Counted from the first letter of the stretch, positions 15,418 to 24,230 are shown. The stretch is DNA of 64,000 bases from an uncultured Candidatus Rokubacteria bacterium (GCA_963749975.1 CAVVOZ010000031.1:1270-65269), one strand, 5' to 3'. Translations and numbers: made by a program. Notes: generated from the sequence alone by a model not told the origin.

Positions 15418-17449
15418 CGGGAGTATCCTGGTCTTCCGTCCGCGCCGCCAGCGCGGCCGCGGCGATCTCACGAAGCCGGCGCTCGGTCCGCTTCCAGGGC
15501 CAGACGCGGCGCCGAGCCAGACCCGCCAGCGCCTCGCAGGAGCCGGCGGTCCCGATCGCCGCCAGCGCCTCGACGGCCTCTCGGCGCAGGGGGACGTCGG
15601 CCACACCCGCCGCCCCGGCTGCGACGTCGCGCAGGACCGGTACGGCCTCGTCCCGCCGGAGCGCTCCGAGGGCGCGGACGGCTTCCAGCCGAACCTCCGG
15701 GTCGACGTCCCCCGACAACGGAAGGATCGGCGGCGCGGCGCGGGTCGGGGCGATCAGGGCCAGCGCCCGCACCGCCTCGATGCGCACCCGGACGTGGGGA
15801 TGGCCGAGAAGCGTCACCACCGGACCGAATGCGGCCTCGTCTCCGATCTTGCCCAGGACGTGGACGAGATTGCGCACCAGGAACCACCGCGGATCCTCGA
15901 GCCACTCCACGAGCGTCGGCACGATGGACGGCCCCACCTTGGCGAGGACCTGGCACATCCTCGCCCGAACCTGGCGGTCGCGCTCCTCGGCCAGGAGCGA
16001 GGTGAACTCCTGGATCGCCTCGCGGGCGACCAGGCCGAGGTACTGGGCGACCAGGGCCAGTTGCCGCTCGTTGCCGCCGTGCTGACGCAGCAGTCCACCC
16101 AGAAGGGCGACGTGCGTGCGCCCCCCCAGGCGCTGCTGGAGGACGGTGAGGTGCTGGACGCGCTCGGGGCTGCGGGCTCCGCCTGCCTGGACGGACTCCT
16201 CGAGGGTCGACAGCACCTGCGTGGCCAGCTCGATCCGCCCCCGGGCGAGGGCTTCGCCCAGAATCTCCTCGAGGGCATCCGCGGCGGAGGTCCCGTGCTC
16301 CTCGCCGTCGACGTGCAGCAGCAGGGCGAGCAGGATCTGGGCGCTGCGCTCGAGCAGGACGTCCGGCTGGCACGATGCCAGGATCTCCTCGCGGAGCTCC
16401 ACGACGAGGGGATCGTCGGCTTCGAGCACGACGCCCTCGTCCCCCAGGAGGCTCGGCGAGTCGTCCGCCTGGACCGCGGACGTGATCGCCTCGACCAGGC
16501 GGCGGCGCTGCACTTCCTCCCATGGAAACTCGAGGAGCTCCGAGCTCAGCGCCAGGAGGGACTCCTGCGGCACGAGGCGCGCCGCCACGTGACGGATCTC
16601 GTCCTCGGTCATCTGGCTGAGGAGGTTGAGGGCGAGGACATCGCGCCCGGCCAGCGGGATGAGGTGGTCGGCGAAGAAGGGCCGGAGGAGCTCTTCGGGG
16701 AGGCCCAGCAGCGCCTCGACCAGCGTCCGGGTCCTCACCTCTCGATCCGGCGCCTGCTCGACCAGACCGTGGATCATCCGCGTCGCCGCGTAGAGGCGGT
16801 CGGGGCCCACGGTGGCCGTGTCCCGGAGCCAGGCGATCAGCGCGGTCCGGTCATAGGTGAGGTCCGCGAACCGGGCCTCGACGAGCCCCACGACCGTCTC
16901 GACGAACAGGTCCACGGCGTCCCGGCCGGTCTGGAGGGCCTGCCGGGTGACCTCGCTCGTGTCGGCCTCGGCCTCCTCGCCATCGCCGGGAGCGCCGATG
17001 CGCACCCGCAAGACTCCGCGGGTGGACAGGAAGCCGCTGGCTCCCCCGAGCTGCCGGAGCTCCCCGCCCGGCATGTTCAGGAGCTCGAGGAAGGCCTGGA
17101 GCTCCCACTCCTCGACGGCGCTATCGATCTCGAGCTCGCGGATCCCGCGGCTCTCCAGGTCGAACCGGAAGGCCTCCAGCGCGGGCTCGACGGTGCGGAT
17201 GTCCGGCCCTGCCCAGACGAAGCGGTCCGGCTCCACGCGAAGGGGGAAGGAGAGCCCCTGCTGGAAGAAGTCCGCCAGCGAGCGGTGGAGCCGCCGGACC
17301 CAGGTCGAGGCGATCTCGCTTCCGGCCGGGTACAGGCTGAGCGACTTCCGGGCCGCCATCAGGGCGCGCAGGAACAGCTCCAGCACGCGCTCGCCGCCGG
17401 CGCTCGCGGCCCCCGCCTGGACGGCGTCGACCGCGCCGCGCGCGGTCAT
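15410..17449 (-). CDS. HEAT/PBS-lyase-repeat protein (~680 aa) with an N-terminal domain of unknown function
   Basis: C-terminal repeats (…VRNLVHVLGKIGDEAAFGPVVTLLGHPHVRVRIEAVRALALIA…). ATGA-type overlaps with both neighbours. Confidence 0.7.
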   Translation of the reverse strand: MTARGAVDAVQAGAASAGGERVLELFLRALMAARKSLSLYPAGSEIASTWVRRLHRSLADFFQQGLSFPLRVEPDRFVWAGPDIRTVEPALEAFRFDLESRGIRELEIDSAVEEWELQAFLELLNMPGGELRQLGGASGFLSTRGVLRVRIGAPGDGEEAEADTSEVTRQALQTGRDAVDLFVETVVGLVEARFADLTYDRTALIAWLRDTATVGPDRLYAATRMIHGLVEQAPDREVRTRTLVEALLGLPEELLRPFFADHLIPLAGRDVLALNLLSQMTEDEIRHVAARLVPQESLLALSSELLEFPWEEVQRRRLVEAITSAVQADDSPSLLGDEGVVLEADDPLVVELREEILASCQPDVLLERSAQILLALLLHVDGEEHGTSAADALEEILGEALARGRIELATQVLSTLEESVQAGGARSPERVQHLTVLQQRLGGRTHVALLGGLLRQHGGNERQLALVAQYLGLVAREAIQEFTSLLAEERDRQVRARMCQVLAKVGPSIVPTLVEWLEDPRWFLVRNLVHVLGKIGDEAAFGPVVTLLGHPHVRVRIEAVRALALIAPTRAAPPILPLSGDVDPEVRLEAVRALGALRRDEAVPVLRDVAAGAAGVADVPLRREAVEALAAIGTAGSCEALAGLARRRVWPWKRTERRLREIAAAALAARTEDQDTPDE

Positions 17450-19104
17450 CGGATCCCCTCCACGCGGGGCGCCCAGGCCAGGACCCCCGCATCCGCGGCG
17501 GCGGGCCGGGCGCCATGGCCGGTGGCCGCCACCCGATCGTCGGAGACGTCCTCGCGGGACAGCCGGGCGAGGCGCGCCAGGAGCGGCCGGTTCGCGTCGG
17601 TCTCGCGGACGAAGACGACGGCCTCGCGCTCGGTGAAGACCAGCCGCCAGCCGCCCTGGGCCAGGAGCGTCTCGCTGAGCGGCGACGAGCGCAGCGCCAG
17701 GATGGTCTGTACCTGCCACTTGTCCAGCACGACCTGCCAGCGCGGGCTGACGTTGACGACGTCCAGGAACTCCTTGAGCACGTCGGGCCCGTACACGTGC
17801 GTGCGGCCGTCCATGAACATCCGGTACTCGGGATACAGTCGCCAGAGCTCGTATCCGCCCCACGCGTAGACGCTGAAGAGCTGATGAGGCAGGCGGTTCT
17901 CCCTGATGAAGGTCATGGTCCGCTCCGGGTACCGGCTCTCCTCGAGGTCGAGGCGAAGCGGGTTCGTGGGCACCCGGGCGATGCCGGCCCAGTGCGCCGA
18001 CACCGCGGTCAGCAGGAGCACGGCGCCGGCCACCACCGGCATGTCGGGCGCCGTCAGCGCGGGCGCGAGCGAGGGCAGGCGTCCCCGCACGGCGTCACGG
18101 ATCCGGGCCCAGTCGACCCGACGCCATTCGGCCATGGCCGCCCCGAGCGCCGCCGCGAGCGGTGGCGCCGCCACGATGGCGAACAGGGGCACGTGCCGCA
18201 CCGACGTGAGCCCGAGGTTCGCGAAGACGAGGACCAGCCCGACGTCGGCGGCGCTGAGCCGACCCCGACCCCACGCGAACGCCGGGAACAGGAGGAGCAG
18301 CATGAGCTCGAGCGGCCGGAAGCCCGCGTGGTGGAAGTTCGGGGGGAACCACTCGATCGTCGAGGTCATGAAGGGCACGCTGCGGACGACCTCGAGCGGG
18401 AACAGGATCGCCCGCACGCCGAACGGGTTCAGCAGGCTGGCGGCGGCCGCCGCCACCCCCAAGCACGCCGTGAGCCCGACCACGCGCCACCCGGCGGGGC
18501 GGCGCTCGGGGTCGACGAGCAGCGGGAGCGCGGTGCCCAGCCCGGCGATCCCGATCACCAGGAACGCCATCACGAAGCCGGCGTGGAGGTTGACCCAGGG
18601 GACCACCAGCGCGGGCACGAGGACCAGCGTGGCGGGGCGGCGCTCCCAGCCCGGGCGCAGGAGCCAGATCAGGATCGCCACGAACAGGTACGTGAAGGTC
18701 TGGGGCCGCGCGTGCCAGAACTCGGCGCCGGTCCACGCCGCCAGAAGCGTCACCGCCGACGCCAGGAGCGGGTGCACGCCGCGGGCGCGCATCGTCCTCA
18801 GGACCACCCAGAACGTGGCCACCACGGTCGCGGTCTTGAGGCCGATCAGCGCGAGCCGCCCCCAGCGCTCCCAGAGGAGCGTGAACAGCACCTGCGTGGC
18901 CCACATGTGGTTGATCCACGGCCGGCCCTCGGCCGTGTAGGAGAAGGGATCCGTCGCCGGCACCGAGCGCGTCTCGAGGATGCGCTGACCGGAGGCCAGA
19001 TACCACCAGAAGTCGAAGACCGTCAGCGAGGACAGGGCGATCGTCGCCACGGCCAGGAGAGTGACGACGAGGAGCGCGCCGCGGGCGGCCCGCCCGGCGC
19101 TCAT
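17446..19104 (-). CDS. Polytopic membrane protein (~550 aa), putative GT-C-fold glycosyltransferase; paralog of the next gene
   Basis: At least 10 predicted TM helices. Conserved N-terminal block FDFWWYL…DPFSYTA.G.PW.NH.W shared with 19101..20564. Confidence 0.7.
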   Translation of the reverse strand: MSAGRAARGALLVVTLLAVATIALSSLTVFDFWWYLASGQRILETRSVPATDPFSYTAEGRPWINHMWATQVLFTLLWERWGRLALIGLKTATVVATFWVVLRTMRARGVHPLLASAVTLLAAWTGAEFWHARPQTFTYLFVAILIWLLRPGWERRPATLVLVPALVVPWVNLHAGFVMAFLVIGIAGLGTALPLLVDPERRPAGWRVVGLTACLGVAAAAASLLNPFGVRAILFPLEVVRSVPFMTSTIEWFPPNFHHAGFRPLELMLLLLFPAFAWGRGRLSAADVGLVLVFANLGLTSVRHVPLFAIVAAPPLAAALGAAMAEWRRVDWARIRDAVRGRLPSLAPALTAPDMPVVAGAVLLLTAVSAHWAGIARVPTNPLRLDLEESRYPERTMTFIRENRLPHQLFSVYAWGGYELWRLYPEYRMFMDGRTHVYGPDVLKEFLDVVNVSPRWQVVLDKWQVQTILALRSSPLSETLLAQGGWRLVFTEREAVVFVRETDANRPLLARLARLSREDVSDDRVAATGHGARPAAADAGVLAWAPRVEGIR

Positions 19105-24130: not shown

Positions 24131-24203
24131 CTGTGAACCTCCCTGGGTTGGGGTGAACTGCACCGGATCTCTGTCCCGCTTACGTCTACCTACGCACACG
24201 GCG

Positions 24204-24230
24204 GTTACTAGAGCAATTCCGGTGCCGACC
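24204..24230 (-). promoter_or_regulatory. Sigma54 (-24/-12) promoter for pilA: minus-strand cGGCAC-CGGAA-TTGCt
   Basis: Plus-strand GCAAttccgGTGCCg at ~24213-24227 read directly; PilR (sigma54 EBP) is encoded immediately upstream. Confidence 0.55.

Follow-up and report, generated by a model that had tools for sequence, protein, structure and literature searches.

A candidate pilin glycosylation module with three GT-C proteins inside the type IVa pilus operon of an uncultured Candidatus Rokubacteria bacterium

Introduction

The stretch of DNA analysed here, 64,000 nucleotides (nt) from an uncultured Candidatus Rokubacteria bacterium (GCA_963749975.1 CAVVOZ010000031.1:1270-65269; hereafter the window), holds pilA, the gene of a major type IVa pilin, followed directly by genes for a family 2 glycosyltransferase (GT2), a methyltransferase, and three polytopic membrane proteins. 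What is a set of glycosyltransferases doing in a pilus operon? The reading that we favour, with a probability of about 0.6, is that these genes form a pilin glycosylation module within the type IVa pilus operon, which would use a polyprenyl-phosphate sugar donor and for which gene linkage suggests the pilin as acceptor. Two of the membrane proteins, the paralogs par1 and par2, probably glycosylate the pilus subunit. This reading is carried by the content, order, and coupling of the genes, by synteny within the phylum, and by the recurring linkage of par relatives to pilin or pilus genes in other phyla.

The glycosylation of pilins has effects on the stability, adhesion, and bundling of pili and on resistance to phages. 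To our knowledge, it is understood for a few pathogens only (PglL/TfpO, TfpW, and PglS).

Results

The module and its coupling to pilA

Gene identities were obtained from Pfam and NCBIfam scans, and starts from reading of the open reading frames (ORFs) and their candidate start codons. The G+C content of the window is about 70%, and the strand of real genes was read from codon-position G+C. All real genes from 12 kb to 31.7 kb lie on the minus strand by this measure, and the module is embedded in a one-strand type IVa pilus supercluster of about 31 kb. The genes were found where an earlier reading of the same DNA (the original prediction) had placed them:

23798-24130, minus strand: pilA, major type IVa pilin of 110 amino acids (aa), N_methyl match
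22826-23761, minus strand: GT2, candidate polyprenyl-phosphate sugar synthase, GTG start, PF00535
22230-22829, minus strand: class I S-adenosylmethionine (SAM)-dependent methyltransferase, 199 aa, TTG start, Methyltransf_11
20561-22369(?), minus strand: GT39/PMT_2-type GT-C protein (GT39-like protein), start codon uncertain
19101-20564, minus strand: par1, of an unnamed family with the GT-C fold, 487 aa, ATGA overlap
17446-19104, minus strand: par2, paralog of par1, 552 aa, ATGA overlap with the par1 stop

The distance from the pilA stop to the GTG start of the GT2 gene is 36 nt, where about 35 nt had been given, and this start is preceded by the predicted ribosome-binding site GGGGGAGG. The tight packing described after pilA was also seen: nearly all junctions overlap, and overlaps of 4-8 nt connect the genes for GT2, methyltransferase, GT39-like protein, par1, par2, a HEAT-repeat protein, an HD-GYP protein, orfX, and pilD. 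As had been stated for the pilA-GT2 interval, no terminator-like site was found, here on the minus strand over 12000-25000, and the folding of the pilA-GT2 spacer was no better than that of shuffled sequence (z = −0.46).

The product of pilA has the leader MFRQLRSQKG followed by LTLVEL (PF07963 N_methyl, E=7.5e-9). Its C-terminal domain is Thr/Ser-rich with a disulfide loop (TPAPTWQCGTQPTYTAANGKVDFTASVTDCP), in agreement with the Ser/Thr-rich C-terminal region that had been described. N-glycosylation sequons were not consistently present in the pilins or the Flp proteins discussed below. Because no conserved sequon was found in the pilins, O-linkage appears likelier than N-linkage, though it is not established.

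Family relationships of the GT2, methyltransferase, and GT39-like proteins

GT2 carries the motif DADLQDDP (PF00535, E=9e-29), and its C-terminal region, read by eye in the translation, is hydrophobic, consistent with transmembrane (TM) helices. It resembles ArnC, PgfS, and AglJ over the full length. The best NCBIfam similarities were ArnC (NF007986, 6e-55) and PgfS (NF047588, 1e-41), both under the family cut-offs; for ArnC the score was 186 bits against a cut-off of 529 bits. The methyltransferase (Methyltransf_11, E=2.6e-23) starts with a TTG that overlaps the GT2 stop by 4 nt. The GT39-like protein passed the cut-offs of both PMT_2 (PF13231, 52.7 bits, cut-off 26.1) and PMT (PF02366, 35.7 bits, cut-off 22.7), and some sources label its relatives GT39. 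After TM1 it has the loop-1 DE motif LPDLYHPDEPRIV (HPDEP), which is kept in the related contigs L002 and L090. It ends in a periplasmic domain of about 190 aa, and no MIR domain was detected in it.

Another reading is that the module modifies a non-pilin envelope glycoconjugate, namely lipid A or the lipopolysaccharide (LPS) core as in ArnC/ArnT or Rhizobium RgtE/RgtA-D, an exopolysaccharide, or a cell-wall glycan, and stands in the pilus operon through co-regulation or functional coupling. The ArnC similarity of GT2 and the ArnT-like character of the GT39-like protein favour it. The module, however, contains no arnA, B, D, E, F or other LPS or exopolysaccharide genes, and the ArnC score is far under its cut-off. 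With the linkage data given below, we regard an envelope glycan as an unlikely target.

The family-level PMT/PMT_2 matches and the PgfS-like GT2 would also suit general periplasmic protein O-glycosylation, like that of actinobacterial Ppm1/PMT, acting on many Ser/Thr-rich proteins, pilus parts included, with the pilin as at most one substrate. Streptococcal Pgf/GtrB-PgtC2 is a precedent for such a system (PMC12041528). We give this broader role still less credence, and the gene placements that weigh on it are described with the par family.

The start of the GT39-like gene needs separate mention. No ATG, GTG, or TTG was found between the methyltransferase stop and the first TM helix, either in the window (22174-22420) or in the 52%-divergent L002 (8119-8500). 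The nearest in-frame starts sit within the 3' end of the methyltransferase gene, with overlaps of 140 nt and 71 nt. In L090, the gene has an ordinary GTG with GGAGG, 115 nt past the methyltransferase stop (1883-2000), and gene callers gave lengths of 495-611 aa for close relatives. A methyltransferase-GT39 fusion or a frameshift was considered and set aside: the homolog lists hold no Methyltransf+PMT fusion, and the L090 start is ordinary. A start inside the methyltransferase 3' end (ATG at 22369) would be the simpler reading.

Fold and conserved residues of par1 and par2

The two multi-TM proteins had been called paralogs with a common motif. They are true paralogs, with 33% identity over the full length (E=3e-49) and the common motif DFWW...DPFS...W.NH.W. 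Searches of Pfam and NCBIfam, a phmmer search of the PDB, and a PDB profile search gave no significant match for either, and they were therefore identified by fold comparison only. The comparison gave 18.8 for STT3B (439 residues aligned), 18.6 for Pmt4, 18.1 for DPY19, 17.6 for AglB, 17.3 for ALG12, 15.7 for PglB, and 15.3 for both AftA and ArnT, so that the top structural neighbours are mostly protein-modifying GT-Cs, a point that speaks against an envelope glycan as target. Both pars are polytopic with the conserved GT-C transmembrane core, and in the structure models all three membrane proteins (GT39-like, par1, and par2) share the GT-C fold, which supports the original prediction together with the acidic motifs in loop 1. 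A comparison of the par profile with the GT39-like profile showed a weak link (74.9% probability). One par homolog carries the automatic UniRef label 'Glycosyltransferase RgtA/B/C/D-like domain', which again points to the LPS-modifying enzymes.

An acidic residue in the first external loop is a hallmark of GT-C catalysis. Directly after TM1 the pars have D26-x-D28, of which D28 was invariant and D26 at least 90% conserved in 24 sequences. The helix map of the structure model places both in the first extracytoplasmic loop, where they would be the catalytic acidic residue(s). Further invariant residues were D49 (of DPFS), W167/N169/H171, E249, R301, G399 within WGGY, and D415-G416. Par2 retains D28 and the remaining invariant positions. 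The oligosaccharyltransferase motif WWDYG is absent from the pars; WGGY stands at 398-401, at the start of the C-terminal domain.

The absence of WWDYG, together with the lack of a flippase gene in the module, could suggest that the pars are not transferases at all. They would then serve as scaffold or lipid-binding subunits with a GT-C fold, like PIG-U/GAB1 of the GPI transamidase, and would either help to build the pilus or flip the sugar donor that the GT39-like enzyme uses. Typical GT-C active-site positions, however, have invariant acidic and basic residues (D28 after TM1, D49, E249, R301, and D415), and because of the invariant acidic residues a non-transferase role is disfavoured. In three Pyrinomonadaceae loci with Tad genes (L010, L013, and L020), moreover, par stands beside flp without any other GT-C. 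We consider this role very improbable.

Residues 224-234 of par1 (NPFHYHAVLFP) form a conserved NPF-x7-P, like the PFX7P of the proline motif reported for TfpW/Emb arabinosyltransferases. It is a possible hint of a relationship to TfpW/Emb.

Conservation among Methylomirabilota relatives

The named relatives of par and of the GT39-like protein come from Candidatus Rokubacteria/Methylomirabilota metagenome-assembled genomes (MAGs). Six related contigs were compared: L001, L002, L003, L090, and two JGI contigs (here A and B). The order pilA (one or two copies), GT2, methyltransferase, GT39-like, par, par was kept in 6/6 contigs, while par identity fell from 56% to 47%. The pilA-GT2 spacer was short in every Methylomirabilota locus, and pilB, T, C, S, and R lay upstream of the module wherever the contig extended far enough. 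After the two par genes came orfX, pilD, the GGDEF gene, and minor pilins in all related contigs except JGI contig A, where par2 is followed by other genes on the opposite strand and orfX is absent. With this exception, the module stands between pilA and pilD in the Methylomirabilota loci seen, which argues against an envelope glycan.

Orthologs of pilA were found in L001, L002 (two copies), and L090. Several relatives have a tandem pilA pair before the GT2 gene (L002, 5922-6737; both JGI contigs), and the window and L001 have a single copy.

The par2 orthologs of more divergent Methylomirabilota carry a C-terminal TPR domain and reach 606-610 aa (L002, 11464-13284; L090, 5330-7159). The TPR fusions suggest recognition of protein substrates, which would also suit general O-glycosylation. 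The window par2 has no TPR tail, and genes for the HEAT-repeat and HD-GYP proteins are inserted after it. These two genes had been counted among the seven packed after pilA. L001 shares them with the window, whereas L002, L090, and JGI contig B lack both, and they were therefore rejected as core parts of the module; because they are missing from the more divergent lineages, they represent an insertion specific to the lineage of the window and L001.

The par family beyond the phylum and its linkage to Flp/Tad pili

Among 1.84 billion cluster representatives, the par profile search found 42,453 proteins at E<1e-3 and 18,489 at E<1e-30. The family is thus very large, and neither Pfam nor NCBIfam has a model for it. 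Scanning a single genome per species gave 588 par relatives, and the locus counts that follow refer to the best 80 of these 588. These 80 came from Chloroflexota, Acidobacteriota, Desulfobacterota, Nitrospirota, Actinomycetota, Armatimonadota, and Patescibacteria. Flp pilins of the 80 loci were found by neighbour-ORF clustering and inspection of small ORFs, with Pfam confirmation.

No type IVa pilin (class III pilin regex) was found within 10 kb of par (0/80 loci). Tad/Cpa genes stood at most 6 kb from par in 24/80 loci, and a GT2 gene beside par in 14/80. In Terriglobia and Pyrinomonadaceae (Acidobacteriota), the genes after par on the same strand are, in order, 1-3 Flp-type pilin genes (G-x4-EY), in some cases tadV, and then cpaB, the cpaC secretin gene, cpaE/tadZ, cpaF/tadA, and tadB; a gene for a GT87-type GT-C is often divergent, upstream of par. 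A Desulfobacterales MAG (L050) has the order par-GT2-flp-flp-tadV-cpaB-cpaC. In L086 par is divergent from flp, and a 33%-identical homolog, P0116, is divergent from flp-tadE-...-tadA. In Geobacterales and Thermodesulfovibrionales, par stands at the distal end of the Tad operon.

The cultured Geomobilimonas luticola has, tightly packed on one strand, tadE/G-tadZ-tadA-tadB-tadC-DUF192 and then a GT-C block: a PMT_2/TMEM260-type GT-C, a PTPS_related membrane protein, par, a methyltransferase, a 673-aa unknown protein, and a GT2. Only par (WP_214174943), the methyltransferase (1e-09), and the GT2 (6e-13) match window proteins by sequence, and the likeness of the PMT_2-type GT-C is at Pfam-family level only. 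The string thus shows, in another phylum and with another class of type IV filament, the kinds of gene seen in the window (GT2, methyltransferase, PMT_2-type and par-type GT-C).

A DUF192 gene regularly stands next after tadC in about 20 Tad loci (for instance L042, 6218-6619; L025, 18913; L085, 20062), and in Geobacterales the GT-C genes follow it immediately.

In a neighbour-joining tree the par clades follow the phyla. Pilus linkage was seen in the Acidobacteriota, Desulfobacterota/Nitrospirota, and Methylomirabilota clades and not in the Chloroflexota clades. By our estimate, the par-pilus linkage represents roughly five or six gene-order contexts that are independent of each other. Par lies directly beside a pilin gene in at least four of the distinct gene orders, and in two pilus classes, as tfpO and tfpW do in Pseudomonas. 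This repeated adjacency in several phyla indicates a dedicated substrate, and since it involves pilin genes of two classes, neither an envelope glycan nor general O-glycosylation is likely to be the whole story. On the other side, the Chloroflexota members are not pilus-linked, which favours either alternative, and the great size and wide spread of the family favour general O-glycosylation. The distant homolog P0115, in a polysaccharide-type cluster, fits the envelope glycan in particular. The contexts of P0118 and P0120 were uninformative.

In L004 (1-21458; GCA_964447795.1), a distant par homolog lies amid many large membrane proteins without a Pfam match, Bac_transf, Wzy_C-TPR, two GT87-like genes, and PMT_2. 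This cluster may assemble a glycan by means of several GT-Cs and have no connection with pili.

Flanking genes and the putative promoter

The genes around the module complete the pilus supercluster:

upstream of 25800, minus strand: pilB, pilT, pilC, and pilS, giving context
24385-25797, minus strand: pilR, sigma54-dependent response regulator, then a 254-nt spacer and pilA
24212-24227, minus strand: sigma54-type promoter-like site CGGCAC-N5-TTGCT, about 82 nt upstream of the pilA ATG
15410-17449, minus strand: HEAT-repeat protein, HEAT_2 E=8e-24, ATGA overlap
14257-15417, minus strand: HD-GYP-type phosphodiesterase, HD_5 E=6e-21, 8-nt overlap
13952-14260, minus strand: orfX, 102 aa, no Pfam match, GTGA overlap
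12924-13955, minus strand: pilD prepilin peptidase, A24_N_bact E=6e-34, Peptidase_A24 E=7e-12, ATGA overlap with orfX
12044-13018, minus strand: GGDEF diguanylate cyclase gene after pilD, from the translation, exact start not fixed

The same strand continues downstream with minor-pilin-like ORFs, a hybrid kinase gene, pilM, pilO, and a secretin gene. The original prediction had described a string of seven genes ending at HD-GYP; those genes are present, but the string continues through orfX, pilD, the GGDEF gene, and the minor pilins to pilM/O and the secretin.

A sigma54 promoter had also been proposed upstream of pilA. The site found there has 1 mismatch to TGGCAC-N5-TTGCW and lies downstream of pilR, the gene of a sigma54 activator. 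Over the whole window, however, the motif occurred 13 times at ≤2 mismatches against 14.8 expected, which is not above chance, and the site is therefore supported mainly by its position.

An arrangement that recalls pilR-pilA was seen in L006, L010, L013, L018, L020, and L048, where a sigma54-dependent activator gene lies about 1.7-3.7 kb upstream of par (tblastn against the window PilR, E 1e-65 to 1e-79). These loci are from Pyrinomonadaceae plus one from Terriglobales (L018), and Flp genes lie downstream in L006, L010, L013, and L020 only.

OrfX is translationally coupled to pilD and may be a pilin or peptidase accessory factor. It had tblastn matches in L001, L002, and L003 (E 4e-21 to 1e-22; L002 orfX, 13403-13702), and an unannotated gene of 99-104 aa stands at its position in L090 (7289-7603) and JGI contig B. 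GGDEF Pfam matches at the equivalent position were found in L001, L002, L090, and JGI contig B.

The ORF at 6901-8463 (minus strand), between the hybrid kinase and the minor pilins, contains long imperfect tandem repeats (6960-7555) with periods of 30, 66, and 253 nt and a TRF score of 837 for the 253-nt period. The repeats code for VREVPVEVV-type peptide units.

Discussion

Comparison with known systems

The closest known system is the TfpW arabinosylation system of Pseudomonas aeruginosa group IV (Pa5196/PA7), compared here by its published description. The gene of TfpW, a GT-C, stands immediately after pilA and shares its transcript; the enzyme has a loop-1 DDX motif, a C-terminal periplasmic TPR domain, and a polyprenyl-phosphate pentofuranose donor (bioRxiv 10.1101/2020.04.19.049825). 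The module likewise has GT-C genes downstream of pilA on the same strand, after a 36-nt gap and then overlaps, with no terminator-like site between. It also has the acidic motif in the first periplasmic loop, and TfpW modifies pilin Ser/Thr. The TPR domain recurs in the par2 orthologs of other Methylomirabilota, though not in the window par2. The two differ in that the window has three GT-Cs, a GT2, and a methyltransferase where TfpW is one multifunctional GT-C, in that the GT2 and methyltransferase genes stand between pilA and the GT-C genes, and in that the module lacks D-arabinofuranose (D-Araf) donor genes (DprE1/E2, phosphoribosyltransferase) and a GtrA-like gene.

Gtr-type systems (GtrA/GtrB/GtrC; GT136 pentofuranose) pair a GT2 polyprenyl-phosphate sugar synthase with a GT-C acting in the periplasm (PMC11127046). 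GT2 and GT-C are both present in the window, but Gtr systems modify O-antigen or polysaccharide and have a dedicated flippase (GtrA/SMR or MATE), whereas the module has three GT-Cs, no flippase gene, and a pilus operon context. In the streptococcal Pgf/GtrB-PgtC2 system, a GtrB-like GT-A (PgfS) and two GT-Cs (PgfM1 and PgfM2) O-glycosylate Ser/Thr-rich extracytoplasmic protein regions (PMC12041528). The PgfS match of the window GT2 is the likeness. The Pgf GT-Cs are of YfhO type, for which neither the pars nor the GT39-like protein gave a match; Pgf also has an epimerase instead of a methyltransferase, and its substrates are Gram-positive adhesins and membrane proteins, not pilins.

Ppm1/PMT (GT39) of Actinobacteria and eukaryotes joins a polyprenyl-phosphate mannose synthase to a PMT-family GT-C, and the GT39-like protein resembles the latter in its PMT/PMT_2 matches and HPDEP. 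It differs by the missing MIR domain and another C-terminal domain and is structurally equidistant from ArnT, and the window adds two GT-Cs of another family. The oligosaccharyltransferases STT3/AglB/PglB (GT66) N-glycosylate archaeal pilins and archaellins. The pars have only high fold similarity to them, with no sequence match (Pfam, PDB, profile) and no WWDYG, and the context in the window points to a lipid donor that carries a monosaccharide through a phosphate and not an oligosaccharide through a diphosphate. ArnC/ArnT and Rhizobium RgtE/RgtA-D share the layout of a GT2 with one or several GT-Cs; the window lacks ArnA, B, D, E, and F, its scores are far under the equivalog cut-offs, and its context is the pilus, not LPS. 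A PglL/TfpO-type enzyme, already excluded in the original prediction, is not encoded either: no module protein matched Wzy_C (PF04932).

As judged from sequence, the module thus differs from known systems in its three GT-Cs of two families, its methyltransferase, its lack of flippase and pentofuranose donor genes, and in pars without detectable sequence kin among solved or curated families. In a literature search of incomplete coverage, we found no description of this module, as the original prediction had supposed, nor of a GT-C family tied to Flp/Tad loci.

Proposed pathway

From gene content and order we infer the chemistry of the donor, what the methyltransferase does, how the three GT-Cs share the work, and the pilin as acceptor. 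The ArnC/GtrB-like GT2 would load polyprenyl phosphate with a monosaccharide at the cytoplasmic face. The SAM-dependent methyltransferase may then act on the sugar itself or on its lipid-linked form; archaeal AglP is a known case of methylation at the lipid-linked stage. The lipid-linked sugar would be flipped to the periplasmic face by a flippase that is not among the module genes. There PilA would receive the sugar on its periplasmic C-terminal domain, probably at Ser/Thr, from the three GT-Cs (the GT39/PMT_2-type protein and the two pars). The pars would use a lipid-phosphate-linked sugar donor, to which the neighbouring ArnC/GtrB-type GT2 in the window and the GT2 genes beside par in 14/80 loci point indirectly. 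Attachment, possibly with stepwise elongation afterwards, would come ahead of the assembly of the PilD-processed pilin.

Weighing the pilin as acceptor

Pilin O-glycosylation, as originally predicted, is supported by synteny, by the absence of Wzy_C, and by the independent Flp/Tad linkage; it is from linkage that the pilin is taken as acceptor. The survey of pilA neighbourhoods proposed with that prediction came out in its favour: the order held in the related contigs and Flp/Tad linkage appeared elsewhere, but the Chloroflexota par members did not follow.

Several observations weigh against pilin glycosylation. GT2 is most similar to ArnC, the structure model of the GT39-like protein is closest to ArnT, and the two proteins are as close to ArnC/ArnT as to protein mannosylation enzymes. 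Systems that modify LPS, such as Rhizobium Rgt, also combine a GT2 with several GT-Cs, in line with the 'RgtA/B/C/D-like' label of a par homolog. The pilins showed neither a conserved sequon nor one Ser/Thr site that could be singled out as conserved. Pfam and NCBIfam detected no GtrA-, SMR- or MATE-like flippase among the module genes, although one could be encoded elsewhere. The Tad linkage counts are phylogenetically non-independent, and in Chloroflexota, which make up most of the 80 loci, neither pilin nor other pilus genes lie within 10 kb of par. P0115 lies among Bac_transf, Wzy_C, GT87, and PMT_2 genes with no pilus genes. The host organism is uncultured.

Meaning for pili and for the par family

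The size of the par family, and its siting by Flp pilin genes or in Tad operons in Acidobacteriota, Desulfobacterota, and Nitrospirota, are new here. They lead us to propose, tentatively and at somewhat short of even odds, that par is a very large unnamed GT-C family whose ancestral job in diderms was to glycosylate type IV filament subunits: type IVa pilins in Methylomirabilota and Flp pilins of Tad pili in Acidobacteriota, Desulfobacterota, and Nitrospirota. It would often act with a GT87- or GT39-type GT-C, a Dpm1/GtrB-like GT2, and a methyltransferase, and the product would be a short, possibly methylated periplasmic glycan. Operon-encoded glycosylation of Flp/Tad pilins would then be widespread and previously unrecognised.

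If the module does glycosylate the pilin, it would represent a third architectural solution, in which a GT2 donor synthase is combined with several GT-Cs of two families. A family of more than 18,000 cluster representatives without a Pfam or NCBIfam model would gain a function, and dedicated glycosylation would reach the Flp/Tad pili of abundant soil and sediment phyla. Geomobilimonas luticola offers a testable candidate in a cultured organism, and the module would provide glycoengineering with new GT-Cs that have small, well-defined protein acceptors.

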